Assembly: GCA_965215885.1 (NCBI GenBank)
Contig: CBDCEW010000098.1
Coordinates: 1 to 64,000, forward strand
Direction: 5' to 3'
Source of the DNA: Candidatus Moanibacter sp.
Lineage (GTDB): Bacteria; Verrucomicrobiota; Verrucomicrobiia; Opitutales; UBA2987
DNA: 64,000 bases
The position numbers and the translations under genes were made by a program. Below the pieces are notes generated by a model, which ran no database searches, was not told the DNA's origin, and saw only the letters and a list, made by a program, of their open reading frames with translations. Of this stretch, positions 3,305 through 52,249 are shown one piece after another; position 1 is the stretch's first letter; each line of letters opens with the position of its first letter.

Positions 3305-3650
3305 CTCTCCTATCATGCCTCACAATCGTGATCTCCCTGTCTTCCTCTTTCGAATTTAGATAACGATTATGATCACGACTGAGGGTCATAACGGTTCCCT
3401 TCTCCCTTCGTGGCTCTCAATCGTGATCTCCCAGTCGATTTTCTTACTTTCGACTTTAGATTACGATTATGATTCACGACAAGAAGATCGAAGCGATATC
3501 CCTCTTTCGTCGTGTCTCTCAATCGTGATCTCCTAGTCGATTTTCTCTTTTCGACTTTAGATCACGATTATGATTCACGATGAGAAGATCGATGCGGCAC
3601 CCCTCTCCCATCGTGGTTCTCAATCGCGATCTCCCAGTCGATCTTCTCTA
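3305..3650. repeat. BIME-like tandem array, ~3.5 units of ~100 bp (caatcgtgatctccc...agattacgattatgattcacga)
   Basis: Unit starts near 3323, 3418, 3520 and 3621; each unit is an imperfect palindrome. Confidence 0.9.
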
Positions 3651-5834: not shown

Positions 5835-6677
5835 TCAATTCTCTTGTTCAAAGCTGGTCTTCATCATGATGTAGTTATACGCGATTCCCAAACCACATGA
5901 TTGCAGGGTTGACGCGCTTTTAGCATCAATATCTGAGACGGAGAATATCCTAGAACATCCCGCATCCCTGGCATCTTCAATCCGTCTCCGGATTAACGCA
6001 GTGTGACAACCCCGCCGTCGATACCGTTCATTAGTAAATCCCCACACCAGATATCCAATTTGGTCTTTGATGAATAGTCTCGCGATGGCAATTGGGGTCT
6101 CATCCACCGAAGCGATATAGTTCCTCCAAATGCCAATTGACTGACTGAATTTGAGGTATGTTTTCGCCGTTTCACTCTCGATTTTTTCCTGAACTTTCAA
6201 CTCCAGGGGATAGAACTGGTCGACTTCGTCTGATGAGTACTGGTCGATACGGATGGACTGGTTTGCGCGCTCGGTACTGGAATCATTGCTTTCATCGTAG
6301 ATCCATACGCAGCGCATCTCTCCAACTTGAAACCCTCGTGCGATTAAGTGAGGTAAAATCATATGCTCCCAGAAGGGATGCTGACTCCGGCTGAAATTCG
6401 AAGGGTTGATTTCGATGAAACAGGCGTCTGAATTCTCCTTGAAGTGAGCGATAATCTCATCGAGCAACTCGAAGGATTCGTTTCCGATTAGGATGGCGCG
6501 ACTTGCAAAATTGGCCTTTTTTTGCAGGAAGGTGCGGGTCTCGCCGAATTTCTTGATCACTACTCCGTAGGGATCGCCAGGAATCCGGCTCAGGCCGGTA
6601 AATATCGCCTCAATGTGATCGGCATGCGCCTGTTGCAGCTGTCGAATGCTATAGCGGTTATGTTTGAATTCCCTCAT
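5835..6677 (-). CDS. GNAT-domain protein
   Basis: C-terminal TNERYRRRGCHTALIRRRIEDA acetyl-CoA motif A. Confidence 0.8.
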   Translation of the reverse strand: MREFKHNRYSIRQLQQAHADHIEAIFTGLSRIPGDPYGVVIKKFGETRTFLQKKANFASRAILIGNESFELLDEIIAHFKENSDACFIEINPSNFSRSQHPFWEHMILPHLIARGFQVGEMRCVWIYDESNDSSTERANQSIRIDQYSSDEVDQFYPLELKVQEKIESETAKTYLKFSQSIGIWRNYIASVDETPIAIARLFIKDQIGYLVWGFTNERYRRRGCHTALIRRRIEDARDAGCSRIFSVSDIDAKSASTLQSCGLGIAYNYIMMKTSFEQEN

Positions 6678-14367: not shown

Positions 14368-15312
14368 TTACCTCCGGAAAGGCTCGAGATCCAACCCCGG
14401 ATAACGCAATGCAAGCGCCTTCAGGTTCTCTTCGGTCCAGTAGGGATGACCAGGTGGAGGAAATCCGAAGAGCTGGAGCTGTCGGACTGAGGCACGCTCA
14501 ACAAAGGCGTGCCATTCTGGTTCGTGTGCCTGATTGGCCCACGCAATCCGGCCGGCCCATTCCGTAGCAGCGGAGCGGTAGCTCACGTGGATTGAAAAGC
14601 GTGCGCCTCGCGGTTCCGTGAGCGCTGTGCCTCGATGAAAGGTCCCGATGCTGTAGGCTGCGACCGAACCCGCGGGACCCTTGCCGGAGACCTCTTTAGC
14701 ATACCAATCCGGGCGCTCCTCGCGCGACAGCCAATTCGGAAGCGCGGGAGCGTTCTGGGTGACTATCCTGGATACATAATGCGGCGGACCGAGTTCTTCA
14801 GGAACGTCACACAGATAGAGAAAGATCTCAATCTGCTTGAATTCTCTGTGCTCGCTCGGAACCAGGAGAGTGTGGTTGAGGTAGTCCCGGTGATGCGATT
14901 GATCGTAATCGGCCGCACCGGTGTATTTGGCCCATGCTTCAGCTGAGTAGATACGAATGTCTTCGGTCCCGAGCATCGCTTCGGCGAGGGCAACCAGGCG
15001 TGGATGAACGGCAAGAAGACTCAGCTCGACGCTTGTGAACGGAAAGTTGGTAATTCCAGCGAACTCGTCGATACGGTACTTCTCGTTGCGTTGCTCGTCT
15101 GCGTCATCGTGAAATTCGTCGCGGCGAGGAAACAGCATCGGAAGCTCACGTTGAGCAGGCGCGAGTTCACTCAAAGGGACGTAGCCGATTAAGATCGCAA
15201 AGCCGTGTTCCTCCCAATGCGAGATGGCACGGGCAATTTCCGCCCTACGACCGCGAGCCGGTGGTATCATGGATTGCTTCGTCATTCTTCCTCGCAATGA
15301 CAGGTGAGACAT
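14368..15312 (-). CDS. Phytanoyl-CoA dioxygenase (PhyH) family protein
   Basis: HRD (HxD) and distal FHRG iron ligands. Confidence 0.85.
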   Translation of the reverse strand: MSHLSLRGRMTKQSMIPPARGRRAEIARAISHWEEHGFAILIGYVPLSELAPAQRELPMLFPRRDEFHDDADEQRNEKYRIDEFAGITNFPFTSVELSLLAVHPRLVALAEAMLGTEDIRIYSAEAWAKYTGAADYDQSHHRDYLNHTLLVPSEHREFKQIEIFLYLCDVPEELGPPHYVSRIVTQNAPALPNWLSREERPDWYAKEVSGKGPAGSVAAYSIGTFHRGTALTEPRGARFSIHVSYRSAATEWAGRIAWANQAHEPEWHAFVERASVRQLQLFGFPPPGHPYWTEENLKALALRYPGLDLEPFRR

Positions 15313-36335: not shown

Positions 36336-36748
36336 TACTATCTCTTAGCGATCCTCAATTTTCTATCATATTAAAAACCAATACCTTATGTGTATCCGTG
36401 GAGAAAAACTTGCTAAGAAAGCAAGGTTCTGTGAAATTGTAATACGGAGAGGACACGGGTGCGCGATGTCGTGTCGATATTGGGAAACTGCATTTTATAT
36501 TTCGTGCACTGCTAGTTCCCGTTTCTTCCTGGCTCCGCATGGAACCTGCATGATATGTAGCCGACCCGCATGGCAGGACGATAACGGTGTCGCAATTAAG
36601 TGTCAGTCGGCTTCGTCTCGACTATCCTGTTCGGCAATCCGGAGAATGGCGGTGGGAATCTCTCTAAACTGATCCACGACCTCGTCGCAGGTCCCAGGTT
36701 GGGCAAAGAATGCACTTCTCATCCAGATTGCCTTTAATCGCTTCGGGT

Positions 36749-37381
36749 TTAATTCCCCGAAGCTTGCTTCGTTTCTAATTCATAAAGTCTAATATCAAAT
36801 GCCTCGGGGCTTGCCCCGAGGATCTTTACTCCGACAGTCTTAGCCGCCATCACATCGTCATCCGGATTGTCTCCGATAAAGATACTCTTTCCCGGTTCTG
36901 TCTCGAGCTCGGACAGGCATCGCAAAAAGATCTCTCTCTCCGGTTTCTTAACACCCTCTTCTCCGGAAATCTTAACTGACCTGAACAGACCGCGAATTCG
37001 TAAACTGTCGATCTTTCTATTCTGTGTTTCCCTACTTCCGTTCGTGATCATCCCCAGTTGATAGTCTTCACTAAGGTTCTTCAAGACTTCCACCGCGTTT
37101 GGAAATGGAATAGCGGCGCTTCCAAAATCGGACCGGTAATTGGAAGTTAAAGATTCGCGTAGCTCGTTACCCAAGTTAAGCTCGGATGAAAAACGTTCAT
37201 AGACTCTCTCCGCAGCTACACAACCATTCTGCTGGTATGTCATATAACGATCGATGAACGACTTCTCTGAGATATGCTGAGACAACTCAAACATACGATG
37301 CTGCTTCACCAGAAAATTGCGGAGTGTAGCACTCCTGTCATGAATGGTCTCATCGAGATCGAATATGATGGCTTCAATCAT
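36749..37381 (-). CDS. HAD-superfamily hydrolase, C-terminus replaced by repeat-derived sequence
   Basis: FDLDET, ITNG, KP, IGDNPDDD; tail runs through gcctcggggcttgccccgagg. Confidence 0.85.
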   Translation of the reverse strand: MIEAIIFDLDETIHDRSATLRNFLVKQHRMFELSQHISEKSFIDRYMTYQQNGCVAAERVYERFSSELNLGNELRESLTSNYRSDFGSAAIPFPNAVEVLKNLSEDYQLGMITNGSRETQNRKIDSLRIRGLFRSVKISGEEGVKKPEREIFLRCLSELETEPGKSIFIGDNPDDDVMAAKTVGVKILGASPEAFDIRLYELETKQASGN

Positions 37382-37865
37382 GGATTGCTAACTCGCGCTT
37401 TTCCCTGGCTGCGTCTGGATCTTGCACGGTCTGGACTCGTTCAATTTTCTCCACGTAGGCGGACCTCAAGCCAGCATTTCTTGCCCCTATTAGAACGTGA
37501 TCTCTGTACCAAGAAAATGGGCGCAGAGATTCATTGATATTCGTAGCAAGGTAGGTGAACGCTTTCGCTTCCACCCCGTTGAAGTCAACCAGGTGCACGC
37601 TCTTCTTCTTATAGCCATGCCCCAGTCCCTCGATCTTGTCCAGTGATTCAATTTCCCCTGGATCGAGGTCGAAAATTACCCCTTCCACCACGTCGGCATC
37701 GGATCCTGTATAGAACGCATTGCATTTCGCCGAACGATCTCCCCCAACCTTATGAAATCGCAGGTCGTGACTCTTCAGTAAAAAGACACCAACACATTGT
37801 GCACTCGGTGCTCGTTCCCGAAGACGATCAATCGCCATGTTGGACCCGTATGCGAAGTACTTCAT
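37374..37865 (-). CDS. Gamma-glutamylcyclotransferase (AIG2-like)
   Basis: YFAYGSNM...LDKIEG..GY. Confidence 0.9.
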   Translation of the reverse strand: MKYFAYGSNMAIDRLRERAPSAQCVGVFLLKSHDLRFHKVGGDRSAKCNAFYTGSDADVVEGVIFDLDPGEIESLDKIEGLGHGYKKKSVHLVDFNGVEAKAFTYLATNINESLRPFSWYRDHVLIGARNAGLRSAYVEKIERVQTVQDPDAAREKRELAIHD

Positions 37866-38083
37866 TGCACTTCCGACTATCGACCGGCCTCACCAATCGT
37901 CCAGACGGGGAATTGCGTGAGGGTCATGTTTCAAAGTCTCTTCTCTCGATTCGGGAAAATGCGAAGATCGAAAAGCTTCCGCTTTCCGCTTCAATCTGAT
38001 TCGAAATGTGTAGCGGAAAGCGAAAGTTTTTCGTCTTTCTGGCCTCGGAGCCATGCTCGAAAATTGCACGCGTTGCAGAATGT

Positions 38084-38323
38084 TCAAATCAAACGGGGTA
38101 GTTCATCAGGCGGCACCAATACCTCAATCGAGCGGGTTTGTCCCGGTTTCCTCCTGATCAATCCCTTCTCATCCAGTTTCAGTACCATCTGGTGAACAGT
38201 CGGGGGTGATACTCGAAAATAAAACTGGATATCGGCTTCGGCCGGCGGACGCCTGTGCAACTTTGTATAGGTGTGTATGTAAGCAAGGTATTGCCCTTGT
38301 CTCTCGGTATATTTTGATTCCAC
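38084..38323 (-). CDS. Small winged-HTH regulator (LexA DNA-binding/MarR-like)
   Basis: T.RQGQYLAYI...PPAEAD...VSPPTVHQM..L...GLI.R.PG..RSI; GTG start inferred. Confidence 0.8.
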   Translation of the reverse strand: MESKYTERQGQYLAYIHTYTKLHRRPPAEADIQFYFRVSPPTVHQMVLKLDEKGLIRRKPGQTRSIEVLVPPDELPRLI

Positions 38324-38619
38324 AACTAGGACATAAGTTTCACGCACATTAGTTGCTTCATGCCCTTGCATAATCTGTGAACAGTCGTTTCCCATTTCTC
38401 TGTTATACAAACTTGAAATGCTTGTTTCCTTCTGTTCAGTTCTCTTTCCGATTCGTTGCCCCTCATTCATTCGTTGCTTAATCATTCTCCCGCTCAGCGG
38501 GATTACGGCTTTGCAGCGCTGCGCTCTATGCGTTCTTCTGTGGCAATTTCTGTTTTCCTATTTCTGTCTTAAAACGTCGCCAATCCGGCATTCAAAAGGG
38601 GATGTCCATTTCACTTTCT

Positions 38620-38954
38620 GAATCGTCTGATTTGTCTTGTTGGCGTTCCTCTCGCTGATGCTTACGGGCTTTCCGCTCGGCCTGTTTCTGCTTCTTGTCT
38701 CGAACCATCTGCTCGATCGACCGGACATTGGCAGGACGCTCTTACCCGAAACGCTTGAAATAGAGAATTTCAATGAACTCCGGGAGAGGAGCCTTCCACG
38801 GTTTCTGCTTGTGGTTCGCCTTGCCACCGAACCTCTTCGGATTCATGCCGAGTTCTCGCGCCATTTGGATGTGCGCGTGGGAAAGATGGAAGCGCTTGCG
38901 CGTATCAACCCACGGCTGGTACTTGGGCGAGAGATTCTTCTTCCGTTTCGCCAT
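38620..38954 (-). pseudogene. Conserved hypothetical protein with apparent premature TAA at 38742
   Basis: MARELGMNPK...WKAPLP..I..LY.KRFG*, followed in frame by ERPANVRSIEQ; 3' end approximate. Confidence 0.6.
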
Positions 38955-38957
38955 ACC

Positions 38958-39305
38958 CTACTCCTCCACTGGAAACAATAGCTCGTTTCCATCAGGGTCC
39001 TTAATCTCAATGACGGGAAAGCCCCACCACTCTCTTGTTGTTTCTATTGATCTTGCATCAATCTCCATTTGCAAAACCTCCAATTCATCTTCTTCGAGGG
39101 CGATGAAGATACGCCCTTTTCCAGCTCGTTCAGTTTCCGTCGCAAGAATGATCTCACAATCCCCTCGGGTTACTTGAGCGACAACTTTTTTTCCGTCTTC
39201 TTCATAGCCCCATGCTTCTTTGAAACCCAAAACACCTGTGTAAAAATCAGATGCGGTTTCAAGATCAGTGACGAAGAAGACTGCTCTCGAATACCAATTA
39301 GCCAT
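38958..39305 (-). CDS. VOC/glyoxalase family protein
   Basis: FVTDL..ASDFY..VLGF...WWG...DPDGNELLF. Confidence 0.9.
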   Translation of the reverse strand: MANWYSRAVFFVTDLETASDFYTGVLGFKEAWGYEEDGKKVVAQVTRGDCEIILATETERAGKGRIFIALEEDELEVLQMEIDARSIETTREWWGFPVIEIKDPDGNELLFPVEE

Positions 39306-39605: not shown

Positions 39606-40229
39606 ATGACTGAAGACCGTCCCAACATATTCGTAATCGTTTCACACGACATCGGCAAGCACCTCGGGTGCTACGGAGTTCCCCAGGCGGGCACTCCCCA
39701 CCTCGACCGCTTCGCCTCGGAGGGTATCCGTTTTGATCGATTCCACAGCACCTCGCCCCAGTGCAGCCCGGCGCGCGCCTCCCTCTTTACGGGGCGATAT
39801 CCGCACAGCCACGGGGTGATCGGTATCTGCGCGGCGACCTTTGAATTCGATCTCAATGAGGACGAGAGACACCTTTCGCACATCCTGCACGAAAGCGGCT
39901 ACGACACCGCCTTGGCCGGGTTTCAGCACGAGACCCTCCGTCCTCACGACCTTCCCTTCGACCGATTGACCTGCAAGGACTCCTCGTGCGACAGTGTAGC
40001 AGACTCGATCATTTCCTTCCTGCACACACAAAAAAAGGGAGGGAACCCTTTCTACCTCCAAGCCGGATGGTCTCAGGCGCACAGGCCGTTTGAGAGACAC
40101 GATACTCTTCCCTACTCCGAGGAAGGCATTTTCATTCCGCCGTGGATCGAAGACGAACCGTCGGCGCGGCCGGAAGACCGCGAGTGGGTTCTTGGAAAGA
40201 AGGCACCAAAACTGTGGCCGTTTGCCTGA
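39606..40229 (+). pseudogene. Truncated sulfatase
   Basis: RPNI...HD.G, CSPARASLFTGRYPH formylglycine motif; ~207 aa, well short of a full sulfatase. Confidence 0.8.
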
Positions 40230-40259: not shown

Positions 40260-40553
40260 TTAGCCTTTGTACAGCAGGGTTCCGTCCGCATCCCAAGGCT
40301 CCTGAGGCAGGTGGTGTAAATTCCAAACATAACGGACCCGATCAAACTCCGCCTGATGCTTCATGATCTGGAAAATCTCCACCGAAACAGCCAGGGAGAC
40401 CAATCGCCGTGCCTCACCGGGGGAACAGCCCTCGGATTGCAGGCGCTCAATAGTCTGACGAGTCTCCGGAGGCTTATCGTCGCGTATTTGGTTTTCCACC
40501 ACTTCGAGAATGGCAGCTCTGACTACTTCGTGACGTGGTTCTTGTTCATGCAT
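40260..40553 (-). CDS. Conserved hypothetical protein (putative cassette 2)
   Basis: AILEVVENQI....PPET..T..RL; starts just after the attC R' box and stops in GGCTAAC. Confidence 0.75.
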   Translation of the reverse strand: MHEQEPRHEVVRAAILEVVENQIRDDKPPETRQTIERLQSEGCSPGEARRLVSLAVSVEIFQIMKHQAEFDRVRYVWNLHHLPQEPWDADGTLLYKG

Positions 40554-40561
40554 ATTCGATA

Positions 40562-40625
40562 AGGTAACGCTAGCGGTGTGGCGCGGCGGCGCAAGCCGAC
40601 GTTGCCCACGACCGCATTGATCTAC
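40562..40625 (-). other. attC-like recombination site (degenerate R'')
   Basis: GTAGATC-aat-GCGGTCGTGG...CCACACCGC-tagc-GTTACCT; inner arms pair with one extrahelical base; sits between two co-oriented small genes. Confidence 0.7.
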
Positions 40626-40659
40626 GTTTCTGGTAGCATTCGGAGCCTTAACTGTGAAC

Positions 40660-40860
40660 CTAGTGCCCGTCGGTTGCACTTCCTCGCTGCTTCTTCTCTA
40701 AATCGCACAGAATGTATCCGATCAAGCCGCCGCCAATTGCTACCCCTAGTAAGATTCCGACTGTACCGGCAAAATTCAGCCCGAGAATTGCGAGAACCGG
40801 CAGCGCCAAGAATGCCGCGATGGATTTCCAGTTCAGACATATGGATGAGAATTGATTCAT
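40660..40860 (-). CDS. Small two-TM membrane protein (putative cassette 1)
   Basis: AGGAGGAGG RBS upstream; two hydrophobic helices. Confidence 0.65.
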   Translation of the reverse strand: MNQFSSICLNWKSIAAFLALPVLAILGLNFAGTVGILLGVAIGGGLIGYILCDLEKKQRGSATDGH

Positions 40861-40912
40861 TTTTTTCCTCCTCCTTTTCGTAGATCATACAATCGCAGAC
40901 CAGTTGCTTTTT

Positions 40913-40945
40913 ACTTAACTGCTGATAGCCCCGATACGTTGTAAG
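40913..40945 (-). other. Putative attI site
   Basis: GTTAAGT (GTTRRRY) at 40919-40913 between the divergent intI remnant and the first small gene. Confidence 0.55.
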
Positions 40946-40990
40946 TTTTTGGTTATTTGCTGGTTAACTCGGTTGAAACAGCGTTTAACG

Positions 40991-41050
40991 TCCGGTAATA
41001 TGCAACCTGTCGTCAATATTGTAATATGCGACAGGTTGCATATTACCGGA
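40991..41050. promoter_or_regulatory. Perfect 22-bp inverted repeat in the intI-attI spacer
   Basis: TCCGGTAATATGCAACCTGTCG-16 nt-CGACAGGTTGCATATTACCGGA; function inferred from position only. Confidence 0.6.
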
Positions 41051-41116
41051 ATACCGGGAAAAAGCAACAGTAGATGCTTGCAAATTGAATAAGATAGTGG
41101 ATATTTGTTCACTAGT

Positions 41117-41290
41117 ATGGAAGATGAAGTTGGGAAGCATTTCTGGGTAGGCGTTCGGGCGGCACTGACGGAAGAAGCAGGATTTGAAACATCTACGGTG
41201 AAATATCGTTGTAATTGGTTGAGACGATTTCTCGACGATGATTTACACGCATGTCTTGAACCGCGGTGGTAAAGGAGTGCGGCTTCCTAC
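41117..41290 (+). pseudogene. intI: Integron integrase remnant (N- and C-termini fused by deletion)
   Basis: MEDEVGKHFW...TVKY..NWLRRF joined out of frame to STMIYTHVLNRGGKGVR, the characteristic IntI C-terminus. Confidence 0.8.
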
Positions 41291-41398
41291 CCTCACGGTG
41301 ATACAGGGCAGATCGGATATATGCGGTTTCGCATTCTCTAACCCGAAGATAGGACGATTTCTTCCACTGAGGCGGGATCGGTATTGGGAATTTCGGCT

Positions 41399-41540
41399 TA
41401 GGAATCTGTCGGGCTTAGAATTCCTAACATCCCCGTGGTGCCGATTTCATCGTGACAGATCGACATTCCGACACAGATGAGACCGACAGATTCCTAGCAG
41501 CCTGATGAAAAAAGTTCGAATAAGTCCGACAGGCTGCTAG
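41399..41540. mobile_element. Two abutting MITE-like remnants
   Basis: IRs TAGGAATCTGTCGG/CCGACAGATTCCTA (41399-41496) and CTAGCAGCCTG/CAGGCTGCTAG (41494-41540); first IR also forms a hairpin at ~43557-43591. Confidence 0.65.
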
Positions 41541-42448
41541 ACTAAAAAATCCTTAACCAACTCTGGCGTCAACTCTGACACTTCATCCCCGGCGTCTTCG
41601 AGGAGGTAATGTCCGGCATCGGGAAAGGTGTGGACCTTGGCGTTGGGAAAGCGCGCTTTCCATCCCTCGAGGAAGGCCTCGGTAAAGACAAAGTCACGCA
41701 ACCCCCAACAGATGAGCATCGGCTTGTCCTGGAGCTTGGGGAGATTCGCTTCTACGGCGCGCATCGCTCCGTGGGAGGGATGCTTCGCGTTCAAGGGTAT
41801 GTCCTGAACGAATCGATGGGTCGCGATGCGGTTTCTCCAACTGTTGTAGGGATAGAGATATCCACGCCTGACTTCGGCAGGCATCGCATTCGTCACGGCC
41901 ATGTGGACGGCCATACCGGCGAATGCGTTGAATTCGCGAATGAGATAAGCGCCGAGGAGTGGCGTTCGGCATAGCTTGAGCCGAAGCGGAATGTCCTGTG
42001 AGAGAAAGGCGGTTGTATTCAGGACGACAATCTTCTCGACTCGGTCCGGCATTTTCCCAGCCAAGGCGAATCCGATCGGACCTCCCCAATCGTGCACAAC
42101 GATGCTGAATCGCTCAAGATTGAGATAGTTCAGGAGTTCCTCCGCATTCCTGACATGGGTTTGAAGGCGATAGGGATATCGTTGAGGTTTGCTGGAAAGG
42201 CCACACCCGATATGGTCCGGCACGATACAGCGGTGGTGATCTCTCAATCTGGTGACCAGTTTGCGATAGTAGAATGACCAGGTGGGATTGCCATGGAACA
42301 TTACCACTGCCGGACCTTCTCCTTCATCTAGATAGTGGTAGCGAAGTGGAGCCGAATCTCCCCCACCCTTTTCGGCATTCCTCTCCAGATCCAGATAATG
42401 TGAGGCAAAGGGATAGAGGGGTCGGAGATCGTCCGGAAGCAGGTACAT
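41537..42448 (-). CDS. oleB: OleB-like alpha/beta hydrolase (haloalkane dehalogenase fold)
   Basis: HGNPTWS, VHDWGG, GHYLLED; directly downstream of oleA. Confidence 0.8.
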   Translation of the reverse strand: MYLLPDDLRPLYPFASHYLDLERNAEKGGGDSAPLRYHYLDEGEGPAVVMFHGNPTWSFYYRKLVTRLRDHHRCIVPDHIGCGLSSKPQRYPYRLQTHVRNAEELLNYLNLERFSIVVHDWGGPIGFALAGKMPDRVEKIVVLNTTAFLSQDIPLRLKLCRTPLLGAYLIREFNAFAGMAVHMAVTNAMPAEVRRGYLYPYNSWRNRIATHRFVQDIPLNAKHPSHGAMRAVEANLPKLQDKPMLICWGLRDFVFTEAFLEGWKARFPNAKVHTFPDAGHYLLEDAGDEVSELTPELVKDFLV

Positions 42449-48610: not shown

Positions 48611-49666
48611 ATGAATAAAGAAGAGCTACGGGAACAGTATCCGAAGCTTCTCTTTCTTGATGAAGCGGACCTCGAATCCCTGTCCGGCTATCTTCGCGCC
48701 TTGCACGTGATCCGTGAAGGAGACCGAGTGACGGGCCGAGAGATACCGGGAGCCGGCAACATGAATTACACACTTCGGGTATTCACTCAGGAGGGCTCTT
48801 TCATTCTCAAACAAGCGCGACCGTGGGTGGAGAAATACCCGGAGATCGAGGCACCATGGGACCGCGTATTATCGGAAGCGGAATTCTATGAGCGTGCACG
48901 GGGTCAGCCCGAATTGGCCGAACGCATGCCCCATCTACTTGCGGTGGATGCACAATCGAGGATTCTCGTAATCACGGATCTTGGATCGGCGAGCGACTTT
49001 ACCGATATCTACTCGGATCGACCGCCCTCGGACCTGGAGTTTTCCGAACTGGCGGAGTGGCTTTCATCTCTGCACAACTGTGTATTCGGTGAAGCGGAGC
49101 GAAAGCGTCTCAGAAACCGGGGGATGCGCACTCTAAATCACGAACACATTTTCAACTTCCCGCTTCGAGCAGACAATGGACTCGATCTGGACTCGATCAC
49201 TTCCGGTTTAAAGGAAAAAGCAGAAGAGTTCGTGGAAGATGGCATTTTCGTGAAGGCGGTTCAGGCAGTCGGCGCAATTTACCTTTCCGATGGCCCAACA
49301 CTGGTGCACGGCGATTTTTTTCCTGGAAGCTGGTTGCGTAGCGAAAAAGGCACACACGTCATCGATGCGGAATTCTGTTTCTTTGGTGTCGGCGAATTCG
49401 ATGTAGGGGTCTGTTGCGCACACTTTTGCCTGGCGCGCCTCCACGGCGGCGCTTTGACAAAATTCCTCGAATCGTATTCCGGCAGCATTTCCTTCGATCA
49501 GCGATTAATGAAGCAATTTGCCGGCGTAGAGATTATGCGACGCCTGATCGGCGTGGCCCAACTCCCCTTGACCTATGGTCTCAAGGAGAAAGTTGAGCTG
49601 CTCTCGCTCTCCCGGCGCCTCGTCCTCAATCCAGAAGATTCCGATTTTTCAGTTGAAGAGATTTGA
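48611..49666 (+). CDS. Methylthioribose kinase-like phosphotransferase
   Basis: GAGNMNY, LKQARP, HGDF, VIDAEF, GVEIMRRLIGVA. Confidence 0.75.
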   Translation: MNKEELREQYPKLLFLDEADLESLSGYLRALHVIREGDRVTGREIPGAGNMNYTLRVFTQEGSFILKQARPWVEKYPEIEAPWDRVLSEAEFYERARGQPELAERMPHLLAVDAQSRILVITDLGSASDFTDIYSDRPPSDLEFSELAEWLSSLHNCVFGEAERKRLRNRGMRTLNHEHIFNFPLRADNGLDLDSITSGLKEKAEEFVEDGIFVKAVQAVGAIYLSDGPTLVHGDFFPGSWLRSEKGTHVIDAEFCFFGVGEFDVGVCCAHFCLARLHGGALTKFLESYSGSISFDQRLMKQFAGVEIMRRLIGVAQLPLTYGLKEKVELLSLSRRLVLNPEDSDFSVEEI

Positions 49667-50196
49667 ACAGAAGGAAACAGAGGAAAACGGAGAGTAAGAG
49701 GAAAGAATTCTCACGCAACGGTCTTCGACCCGCAAGCGGCACTACGCCCTGTCAAGAAGACTATGGTCTCAAGTTGAGGCCGTTCCTCGGGAGATGAAGA
49801 GAGAGAGACACGGAGAGTAAGAGGAAAGACGACTTCGACCCGGGGATCAAGAAGACGCAAAGGGGGAGATGAAGAAGAGAGACACGGGAGATGGGGAGAG
49901 TGGGATGCTGATCGATTTTCCCGTCGTGAATCATAATCGTGGTCTCCGTCAAAATGGATTCGACAAGGTTCGGGACCCGTCGTCGCTGTGCTTTGCCGAG
50001 GCAGGCAGGGTTTCCCTTTCGGGTTGTTCCGCGTAATTGGAAAATTAAAGTAAAGGAAGGGCACTGGTCACGTTTGTTCAAACCTCGTCGCAAACGTTCT
50101 CGAGAACCTTGCATCCCTCGGCATAGCGGAGGCACGACGGATGAGGGGAATTTGGTCAATCTTTGGCTGCAATCATAATCGCAGTCGAAAAGCGGG

Positions 50197-51132
50197 CTAG
50201 CTTCTCGGATGGGCCTTACGGTGCGCTTCTTTGAGGCGGGCAACACCGACATGAGTATAAATTTGTGTAGTTGAGAGGCTGGCGTGGCCAAGTAATTCCT
50301 GAACGGATCGAAGGTCGGCTCCACGGCTAAGCAAATGGGTGGCATATGAATGGCGTATTTTGTGAGGCGACATATCCATCGGCAGTTCCGCGAGGCTGAG
50401 ATACTTCTTTACCATTTTCTGCACAAACCGCACGCTAATCCGCTTTCCGTTGCGGTGTACCAGGACGGGGCTATCGAAGCCACTATCCGGCACATATTGC
50501 TCTCTAAAAGTGCGCAGACAGGCCATAGCCACTCTTCCCAATGGACACAGCCGCTCCTTATTGCCCTTCCCAAGAATCCTCGCAACGCCGGTTTCCTCAT
50601 CGATCATACCGTTATTGAGTTGAACCAGTTCGCTCACTCTGAGTCCACCGCCGTAGAGCAGTTCCAACGCGAGCCGATCCCTCCAGGCCTGGAAAGGGGT
50701 AGCTGACTTTTCATTGAGGAGCAGCATCGGTCCCGAAAGGAGGTGAGAAATCTGACTCTCAGTAAGAAATTTCGGGAGTGATTTCCGAACCTTGGGAAGG
50801 ATCGCTCCTACGAACGGATTCGATCGCACGAACTTTTCCTGAAGAAGAAACCTGAAAAATGAACGCAGGGCTGAAATGCGGTTGTGAATGGTCCTTCTCG
50901 ATAGTTGATGCTGGCTCTCAATAATGTAATCACGAACCAGTGTCTCGTCGACTTCTCCCAGGTCTCCGCTCCAGATTCCGGTTTTCCGCAGCCACCGGAA
51001 AAAATGAGCCAGGGAATTTCGGTAATTTTTCACGGTGTGGAGCGAGAGTCTCCTCTCTAAGGACAGCTTATCCAGAAATCGCCGACTCAGGATGGTCTCC
51101 GGAGAGAGGCAGGGTTCAGGTGAACTATCCAC
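50197..51132 (-). CDS. xerC: Tyrosine recombinase XerC
   Basis: GLRVSEL, GKGNKER, HKIRHSYATH, LLGHASLSTTQIYTHV, terminal AHPRS. Confidence 0.85.
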   Translation of the reverse strand: MDSSPEPCLSPETILSRRFLDKLSLERRLSLHTVKNYRNSLAHFFRWLRKTGIWSGDLGEVDETLVRDYIIESQHQLSRRTIHNRISALRSFFRFLLQEKFVRSNPFVGAILPKVRKSLPKFLTESQISHLLSGPMLLLNEKSATPFQAWRDRLALELLYGGGLRVSELVQLNNGMIDEETGVARILGKGNKERLCPLGRVAMACLRTFREQYVPDSGFDSPVLVHRNGKRISVRFVQKMVKKYLSLAELPMDMSPHKIRHSYATHLLSRGADLRSVQELLGHASLSTTQIYTHVGVARLKEAHRKAHPRS

Positions 51133-51221
51133 TTTTGTCTCGGAATTACCCCGTTCCGGTATAAACGTGTTTAGCGTGATGGCAAATACCTTTGTTCGAT
51201 ATTCGAAACAAGGGTTCAAGC

Positions 51222-51363
51222 CTGAATGGCACTAACCGAATGTAAGAATCGCTCGCAAGCGAGCTTCCTACGACGAACGTAAGTTTTTGTAGGAAGGCCG
51301 CTTGCGGCCGAATCGGGAACATCGGTGATCACCGTAACGATCCCTTAATTTAGTGCCATTCGG
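51222..51363. mobile_element. 142-bp MITE-like element containing a GTAG REP pair
   Basis: IR CTGAATGGCACTAA/TTAGTGCCATTCGG; TTCAAGC duplicated at 51215-51221 and 51364-51370. Confidence 0.75.
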
Positions 51364-51443
51364 TTCAAGCCTTAGAAGTGAATTCTGCTGAAAACCCCCA
51401 AGTTTTTGTCCCGGATTCCGAGACCACGACTTTCTCACCTGAA

Positions 51444-51998
51444 TCAATCCAAACCCAACACTTTCCGGCCTTCTTCAGAAATCATATGTGGGGTCCAAAG
51501 CGGGTCCCAGACGATTTGCACATCCGCGGAATTCACCCTCGGTATTCCCTCGATTTTTGCTTTCGCGTCGGCTGCAATGGCCGGCCCCATTCCGCATCCT
51601 TGAGCGGTCAAAGTCATCTTTACCTCCACTCGGCAATGTCCGTCATCCTGATCGAGTATATTCAAGTCGTAAATGAGGCCCAGATCAACAATGTTAACGG
51701 GGATTTCCGGATCGTAGCAGGTCTTCAAGGCATTCCAGACCCGATCTTCACTAAAACTGTCATCTTGCGACTCCTCCAATTGAAGACCCTGGCGAAATTT
51801 CTCGGCAAAAGCATCTCCCAACGCATCGACGTCCGACCTCTCCAGGCGAAACAGGCCCATGTCGGCTCGAATTGTTATCGATCCGCCTAAGGCCTGCGTA
51901 ACAATCACTCCCGTTCCCTTCGGAAGATTGATCTCATCTCCCGCCGGTATCAAAGTTACTCGACAGTCTCGAACCAGTTCTTGCTCTCGATTTTCCAT
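51444..51998 (-). CDS. sufT: Fe-S cluster assembly protein SufT (DUF59)
   Basis: ITQALGGS-like N-domain, YDPEIPVNIVDLGLIY, TLTAQGCGMG. Confidence 0.9.
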   Translation of the reverse strand: MENREQELVRDCRVTLIPAGDEINLPKGTGVIVTQALGGSITIRADMGLFRLERSDVDALGDAFAEKFRQGLQLEESQDDSFSEDRVWNALKTCYDPEIPVNIVDLGLIYDLNILDQDDGHCRVEVKMTLTAQGCGMGPAIAADAKAKIEGIPRVNSADVQIVWDPLWTPHMISEEGRKVLGLD

Positions 51999-52110
51999 GG
52001 TCGCTTCGAAACCGCTAAGCGGTATCTCTACATAAAGGAATTGGAGTACTTAGTAATAAGCCCTTATTTCGGAGTAAAGCAAATCATTTCCAGCCAGGCC
52101 GTATGAAAGG

Positions 52111-52249
52111 AGCTGAACCCAATCCCATTTTTAGGATTTCTCCCACTTTGGGCTGCCCGCCGTTGCCCAAGGACTTCGGAGGACGGGCCGCCCCATACCA
52201 CCGTGCCTGCCGGTGACCACAAGTCCCCAGCTCGAACAGAGTCTCAGTT
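52111..52249 (-). ncRNA. Candidate rod-shaped structured RNA (6S-like)
   Basis: Ends pair (ctgagactc/gggttcag); inner stem tggggcggcccgtc/ggcgggcagccca around an unpaired bubble; folded by eye only. Confidence 0.3.

Follow-up and report, generated by a model that had tools for sequence, protein, structure and literature searches.

An integron remnant in a Candidatus Moanibacter genome, with a mostly deleted intI gene and a natural GAT-core cassette at its attI site

Between an oleB-like gene and a truncated sulfatase gene, in a stretch of 64,000 nucleotides from Candidatus Moanibacter sp. (contig CBDCEW010000098.1; hereafter the window), lie two fragments of a tyrosine recombinase gene, two small genes and a hairpin resembling a cassette recombination site. 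What was this locus, how did its first gene come to be there, and can that gene still leave? The locus is an integron remnant in which intI is mostly deleted, together with an attI site, a first cassette and its attC (Table 1). We consider it probable that intI was cut to two out-of-frame ends, that this integrase, while its gene was still whole, inserted the first cassette, with its matched GAT/ATC core, at attI, and that the site is now inactive. The two intI ends, the join between them, the attI crossover at 40886, attC1, and the first bases of the cassette, which match its own R'', can be read directly from the DNA. The intI pieces lie on the forward strand and the cassette genes on the reverse, such that the cassettes point away from intI; this divergence had been proposed in the original prediction, as had the loss of most of the integrase, and both proposals stand, the second on the C-terminal IntI match and on the recurrence of the join in independent assemblies.

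Table 1. Features of the integron remnant and its flanks, in positions of the window (a caret marks the point of crossover)
Feature	Position	Strand	Remarks
Truncated sulfatase gene abutting the array end	39606..40169	+	Pfam Sulfatase
Degenerate attC-like hairpin, R'' GGCTAAC overlapping the cassette 2 stop codon	40206..40265	-	doubtful
Cassette 2 gene, 97 aa, no assigned family	40260..40553	-	starts 9 bp past attC1
attC1, 64 nt, R'' GTAGATC (ATC for AAC), R' GTTACCT	40562..40625	-	core unpaired at position 2
Cassette 1 gene, 66 aa, hydrophobic, predicted small membrane protein	40660..40860	-	AGGAGG ribosome site
attI-bearing platform	40886..41113	-	crossover after G at 40886 (…CGATTGTATG^ATCTAC)
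Inverted repeat, perfect 22-bp arms, inside the platform	40991..41050		z -11.3
Likely LexA (SOS) box	41098..41111	+	2 mismatches to TGAACAnnTGTTCA; ends just upstream of intI start
5' remnant of long-type intI, 39 codons, start of N-terminal extension	41117..41233	+	weak match and position
Deletion join	41232..41240	+	bridged by contigs; size from long IntI alignments
3' intI remnant S-TMIYTHVLNRGGKGVR	41232..41282	+	out of frame; codon at catalytic tyrosine position present
Stack of genome-wide short repeats between intI remnant and oleB-like gene	41282..41541		up to ~90 other-locus matches per position
Bridging contigs	X1 40961-41429; X2 41114-41429; X4 41172-41349; X6 41161-41311		

The second peptide, STMIYTHVLNRGGKGVR, begins at 41232 and is shifted by +1 relative to the N-terminal piece, out of frame as predicted. 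It aligns to positions 294-311 of 315 in TIGR02249 (E 3.3e-4, under the cut-off set for the whole protein, as any fragment must be) and to positions 309-327 of 337 in PRK15417, which places its tyrosine at 312, numbered as the active-site tyrosine of IntI1 in a passage of PMC2811028. The piece shares with XerC and XerD a tyrosine-recombinase C-terminus bearing T-x-I-Y-T, but resembles the intact IntI of the same genome rather than its two Xer-like proteins, which differ from it in their endings: these read TQIYTNVEKK and TQIYTHVGVARL in the Xer-like proteins, TMIYTHVLNRGGKGV in the remnant and TMVYTHVLNRGGRGV in the intact IntI. An origin from XerC/D was rejected on the IntI family matches and on this C-terminus, in keeping with the IntI identity first proposed. 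The SPLD-x-L ending usual for IntI is absent, a genome-wide repeat taking over at 41282, where 13 repeat matches from other loci start, and the IntI-specific insertion near patch III would fall in the deleted part. An intact XerC-like recombinase gene, unrelated to the remnant, also lies in the window, 9 kb off (48748-52209, L003).

From the four best-aligned long IntIs, the part missing from intI is estimated at 360-415 codons (1.08-1.25 kb), about nine-tenths of the gene length. Confirmation of the junction by spanning sequence had been called for, and contigs bridged it in all four of the runs examined (out of 24 listed, runs with a small share of words being set aside; from four studies, and one possibly the genome's own source), with at least 31 letters per side and 0-1 differences; as independent contigs carry the join, an assembly artefact was rejected as its source, and differences nearby in run X4 suggest that the deletion is common to distinct strains. 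A microhomology, gacgat, is plausible at the join; like the size of the deletion it is an estimate, no intact parent allele having been found. A DNA search of relatives returned an intact parental intI or platform in 0 of 60, and the platform motif had no match in metagenomes and two in a collection of genome contigs, both chance occurrences inside unrelated genes. Two comparisons with protein collections returned only protein P0001, and 400 genomes of the phylum gave three weak matches (E 0.016-0.038), none significant. Four metagenome loci were rejected as parent candidates, having matched through out-of-frame C-terminal DNA only, and the extension of L021, used as a query, found itself only.

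P0001 corresponds to a further-deleted copy of the same remnant carried by a relative, in which 41194 is joined to 41295 at a 7-base repeat. Because this sibling deletion sits on such a repeat, a repeat-guided event is the likeliest cause of the deletion in the window. It is unlikely that the integrase deleted its own gene through secondary GWT sites in place of replication slippage, an alternative that bears on the cause of the deletion only: IntI can use GWT sites and delete genomic DNA, as part of bioRxiv 10.1101/2022.09.11.507474 reports, and GAT triplets occur at this join and near the one on contig C105, but GWT triplets are common enough to be expected close to any join, and the sibling deletion lies on a 7-base repeat. 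Under repeat-guided loss, a deletion of about 1.1 kb, probably by slippage between short repeats, would have removed most of intI, the genome-wide repeat would have replaced its last codons, and a further deletion would have cut the array after two cassettes.

At that far end, the second hairpin was missed by the covariance model for attC described below and folds with z -0.9. The sulfatase gene is cut at 40169, about 40 bp past this hairpin; a paralogue on contig C72 aligns up to the same position and then diverges abruptly, a break also visible in run contigs, from which we infer a second deletion or rearrangement. Genes at 36749-39305 were considered as further cassettes and rejected, with no attC match there; a HAD-hydrolase gene shares its 3' end with a 98-bp element (36733-36830) that recurs identically dozens of times in the genome. 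On the integrase side, the advised check for an intact intI at the oleB locus of relatives came out negative: none of six oleB loci found in eight genomes of the family had an IntI within 1.5-kb flanks, and, judged by these sequences, an oleB integron is no ancestral trait of the family. The gene directly after oleB in five g2 loci is one we take to be malQ. At 41558-41569, the end of the oleB-like gene, all four runs are 12 bases shorter than the window, which may hold an assembly duplication or a private allele.

Sites of the attI type are otherwise hard to predict, and here the crossover could be located by comparison of copies. The sequence at 40883-41113 has five others in the genome: C80 (92% identical), C104, C69 and C105a (82% each), and the more distant C105b. 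All six are alike up to CGATTGYATG, after which the five others read TT and diverge; because those five stay alike up to G^TT, the crossover is placed at 40886, the position at which contigs of the paralogous platforms cease aligning in three runs. When the R'' of the first cassette is compared with the seven bases from this G, the agreement is 7/7 in the window, C105a and C105b and 6/7 in C80, and no clear matching first R'' was found for C104/C69. The GTTAAGT that had been proposed as attI, about 200 bp upstream on the opposite strand, does exist (40919-40913, minus strand, 198 bp from the ATG), but it was rejected as the attI core: it is kept in two of six copies, and homology continues 33 bp beyond it to 40886.

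On the integrase side of the five other copies, no convincing intI trace was found within 4 kb, two weak matches at E 0.005 being treated as noise, and an IS occupies that side of the C69 copy. About 36 tandem copies of GTCGAAG (C80:69152-69406, L007) stand exactly at the expected intI start on the 92%-identical platform. The C104 and C69 copies share a block that is 99.7% identical, and C104:161568-163900 and C69:17153-19380 form a near-identical duplicate of one platform with its first cassette, either a strain variant or a recent duplication. Within the platform, the 22-bp arms of the inverted repeat are matched at 19/22, 15/22, 15/22 and 21/22 positions in four other copies; the repeat is composed of three copies of a 12-bp motif, and both arms change together in C104/C69 and in C105a. 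Its candidate roles are accessory binding site, operator and cruciform.

The array had been described as frozen by the deletion. Frozen it likely is, but the deletion alone does not suffice for this, as an intact IntI encoded at C100:128287-129216 could act in trans. That gene is the only intact intI of the genome, which besides the window remnant holds two more broken ones. It encodes a short IntI of a different type and has a LexA-like box; a 3'-truncated close paralogue lies inside the C100 array (C100:114956-115306). A second long intI (C105:327125-327938, L068), disrupted by an internal deletion that shifts the frame, lies beside its own attI and a multi-cassette array. Between the intact intI and its array stands an IS of about 1.9 kb (C100:126250-128143), presumably ISAs1-like, of which there are dozens of near-identical copies. 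The attI belonging to this gene is interrupted by an IS and was not recognised. The attI regions at the C100 paralogue and at the C105 intI share matches of at most 9 bases with the window platform; this dissimilarity makes service in trans at the window attI unlikely. With 90% completeness, 5.5% contamination and no recA, the assembly could lack a cognate intact intI.

A platform orphaned but alive, with all six attI copies served in trans, and kept for that reason, by the intact C100 IntI or by an unassembled cognate one, is decidedly unlikely. Consistent with such service, sequence adjoining the crossover is retained in all six copies, five distinct first cassettes follow them, an intact IntI with a LexA-like box is at hand, and the assembly is incomplete; but IntI1, according to the relevant part of PMC2811028, recognises only its own attI efficiently, the close paralogue of the C100 IntI lies beside an unrelated attI, contigs from three runs of three studies join attI to one and the same first cassette with no alternative among the matches listed, and this locus has a truncated array with impaired attC sites. 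Several intact IntIs are found per genome in relatives such as G104, G145 and G146, and with so many integrases per genome, six leftover platforms are a plausible result of ordinary decay. The sole intact IntI of the assembly, being of another type and with a different attI beside its close paralogue, would probably be unable to reload this attI.

The 5' end of the gene is assigned to IntI with moderate confidence, from sequence likeness and position. The ATG at 41117 opens MEDEVGKHFW...NWLRRF as originally read, the stretch ending NWLRRFL, and the fused frame after the join ends at TAA 41270-41272. This piece matched no Pfam or NCBIfam family; in a blastp reference set of 22 IntIs from the same order it aligned best to the first residues of L021, L023, L020 and L027 (E 4e-4 to 8e-3), its best IntI score of 25.8 bits (blastp) comparing with 16.5-20 bits for control recombinase loci (tblastn). 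An HMM of 24 IntI extensions gave the piece 10.6 bits, a score reached by 0 of 5000 shuffles (best 10.5 among the 4280 reported). Among 126,820 genome segments the piece ranked 4, with E 1.8. Long IntIs (400-535 residues) are common in this order, in which 60 of 301 genomes have an IntI above the cut-off. The comparison of both peptides with IntI, as originally advised, has therefore favoured the two unequally, the C-terminal piece matching TIGR02249 and the N-terminal one only weakly matching the N-termini of long IntIs. Its assignment is strengthened by position, since the ATG lies 6 bp past the LexA-like box and faces away from attI.

The box itself is likely, as a prediction from sequence, a LexA site. 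With at most one mismatch, TGAACAnnTGTTCA occurs at 10 sites in 6.36 Mb, including those upstream of lexA, of both other full-promoter intI genes and on the C80 platform; with two mismatches it occurs at 146 sites, such that the window copy taken alone is weak. The candidate motif lies at C36:41191, C83:1337, C4:13992 and seven more sites. In Verrucomicrobia the LexA motif is TGTTC-N4-GAACA, of which this genome has no exact match. A check of recA for the box found that gene absent from the assembly.

It is improbable that only the C-terminal piece derives from intI, the 39 codons being an unrelated short gene or non-coding DNA and the event a replacement rather than one internal deletion. Along with the lack of a Pfam or NCBIfam match, the sole match of these codons among 1.8 billion representatives is another broken copy, and 400 genomes of the phylum gave no significant IntI match for them; against this, the piece follows the LexA-like box at 6 bp, points away from attI and matches long IntIs at their very N-termini, the homology of the C80 platform copy stops just before the ATG position, and another long intI, on contig C105, is broken in the same manner. 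We therefore keep to a single internal deletion that left both ends of one intI.

The protein of cassette 1 has no Pfam or NCBIfam match below E 0.02 and one other homologue in the protein collection. A homologue 63% identical is encoded at C104:78434-78622 (L130), with no attC match beside it and outside any detected cassette; it is possibly a domesticated cassette or a source gene. The small gene followed by an attC-like hairpin, as first described, is confirmed as a reading frame of 66 codons and an attC. In the 64-kb window, attC1 is the best match to a covariance model trained on nine other attC sites of this genome, and so built without it (24.6 bits, E 8e-4, full length). The hairpin follows the gene and has the R''-L''...L'-R' layout, with 5- and 6-base spacers and an extrahelical base; its folding energy by itself is insignificant (z -1.5; 13 of 200 shuffles fold as well). 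The genome gave 35 attC matches, one of them partial and dropped; the core triplets of the remaining 34, which include the nine training sites, are AAC/GTT in 31 and AAC/GTC, ACC/GTT and ATC/GTT in one each, the last being attC1, which departs from the canonical AAC/GTT and is classed as a variant attC. Other matched non-canonical cores were sought in this genome and two candidates rejected: a GTC core at C100:107876 lacks a matching R'', and the ACC site on contig C2 abuts an apparent intron fragment.

The junction G^ATCTAC is the exact complement of the attC1 R'' GTAGATC over all seven bases, and no other such complementary 7-mer lies within 1.5 kb downstream; it follows that the first cassette has a matched GAT/ATC core. 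Across this genome, the 5' core of a cassette is complementary to its own R'' at 7/7 bases in 11 of 15 adjacent pairs, at 6/7 in three and at 3/7 in one. Cassette 1 with a GAT core was found in none of 400 other genomes. IntI exchanges strands after the G of the core, so that when a GTT attI takes up a paired GAT cassette the junction becomes G^AT and the attC has ATC facing GTT, as is seen here. A circular cassette with a paired GAT/ATC attC would have recombined with a GTT attI; the G would have stayed with attI, ATCTAC would have come with the cassette, and the old TTACCT would have moved to the far end of attC1, which, now unpaired at position 2, would be a poor substrate.

Relatives hold cassettes of the same kind. 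We sampled 40 IntI-bearing genomes, with 20 array regions from eight chosen for strong matches and 185 attC sites from seven. Among the 50 sites of G256, 16 have an R'' ending in ATC, as do 11 among the 70 of G278 (27/120 together, within one genus) and none among 65 in five other relatives; the attC model, almost wholly AAC-trained, may under-detect ATC sites. Across 102 adjacent pairs in G256 and G278, the cassette start and R'' read GTT-AAC in 72, GAT-ATC in 19, GAT-AAC in 2, GTT-ATC in 0 and otherwise in 9, a covariation (p 7e-18, overstated owing to the kinship of the genomes and to a duplicated block in L106) which argues that GAT cassettes are a real class moving as a unit. That GAT at attI and ATC in R'' arose in place as two independent point mutations, for which one might cite the decay of the locus and the two single GAT-AAC mismatches among these pairs, is scarcely credible, given that the integrated positions lie 261 bp apart and unpaired, such that nothing selects for a match, that all seven bases match, and that GAT/ATC cassettes form a class in relatives. 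Five cassettes with R'' ATC in G278 and G256 start G-TAG and not G-ATAG, one base short (L100:4446-4506, 5963-6036 and the 14557-14617 region; L101:2718-2778 and 3309-3376; L105:3882-3942). These starts may reflect slippage during strand exchange, specific to GAT cassettes, by which T at position 2 is restored.

In the laboratory such cores are already known. The triplet GTT was called absolutely conserved in the integrons then known in the part of PMC2811028 that introduces its mutants, where a paired GAT attC recombined with wild-type attI1 through IntI1 at 1.9 times the wild-type level, and an unpaired GTT/ATC site at 6e-6 compared with 2.2e-3, about 370-fold less. The latter figure describes attC x attI recombination and not excision, and the notation in that portion of the paper is ambiguous as to which arm was changed. 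The engineered attCaadA7-GAT and attI1-GAT (1.9-4.6 times wild type with IntI1, by the same partial account) share with the window site the T-to-A change at position 2 with the partner change; they differ in that the window site is natural, lies at an attI junction and belonged to an integrase of a long, uncharacterised type. A search for natural GAT/ATC attC sites in the literature found none, only laboratory mutants and GWT secondary sites, most subscription journals and supplements falling outside it, such that absence from print is not implied.

If the IntI1 insertion figure for an unpaired core may be carried over to excision, an extension by analogy, a GAT core where textbooks give GTT likely helps to lock cassette 1 in place. 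A broader form of this idea is possible, although we hold it only tentatively: in the integrons of the order the spelling of the core, GTT or GAT, would act as a compatibility lock, in which a GAT cassette inserts efficiently, is left unpaired before a GTT neighbour and leaves only when the neighbour shares its spelling, the window locus being such a cassette at the attI of one among six platforms that remained after their integrase was lost. Against a strong lock, non-random pairing of GAT and GTT neighbours was absent in G256 and G278 (7, 19, 16, 66; Fisher p 0.42); matched and unmatched cores are mixed at random in these GAT-rich arrays, a pattern in which no lock is apparent, and GAT cassettes are evidently in circulation.

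Dead integrons themselves are of a known, ordinary kind. Inactivated chromosomal integrons of Xanthomonas, in work of Gillings and co-workers from 2005, are said to have lost intI by deletion, which fixed the cassette array. The likeness to the window lies in that loss and fixation; the difference is that Xanthomonas has one ancestral locus, and here the genome has several platforms and the oleB loci of six relatives lack an integron. Of the intI gene, 39 and 17 codons remain, out of frame, where a complete integron has it intact; a predicted attI with a G^TT-type crossover is present beside it by sequence, and its core complements the first R'' in four of five distinct platforms. A CALIN comprises at least two attC with no intact intI nearby, and the contig, which has no intact intI, holds one confirmed attC and one degenerate. 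In the part of Cury et al. 2016 (PMC4889954) that bears on this, intI pseudogenes lie near 15 of 279 CALINs, and 20% of integron-bearing genomes have several integrases. The locus resembles a CALIN beside an intI pseudogene as described there in having attC-bearing cassettes next to a recognisable dead intI, and differs in having one model-confirmed attC where two are required, and in an attI that is kept and mapped, with five more platform copies in the genome. No sigma-70-like site for a cassette promoter (Pc) was found on the cassette strand, and one was found on the forward strand, as expected by chance; the cassette genes may still be expressed. The window locus is accordingly an ordinary dead integron, to which the attI at 40886 and the natural GAT-core cassette there are the additions.

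These additions bear on how integrons of this lineage are to be read. With six copies of one platform to compare, an attI crossover could be mapped to the base, in a lineage for which we found no described attI. The natural GAT/ATC cassette at that crossover shows that a GTT/AAC core called "invariant" does vary outside the laboratory, in line with what laboratory mutants had predicted, and searches anchored on GTT will misplace such sites, as happened at this locus with GTTAAGT. Should an unpaired core indeed prevent excision, the spelling of the core would offer a simple and testable means of controlling which cassettes remain fixed.
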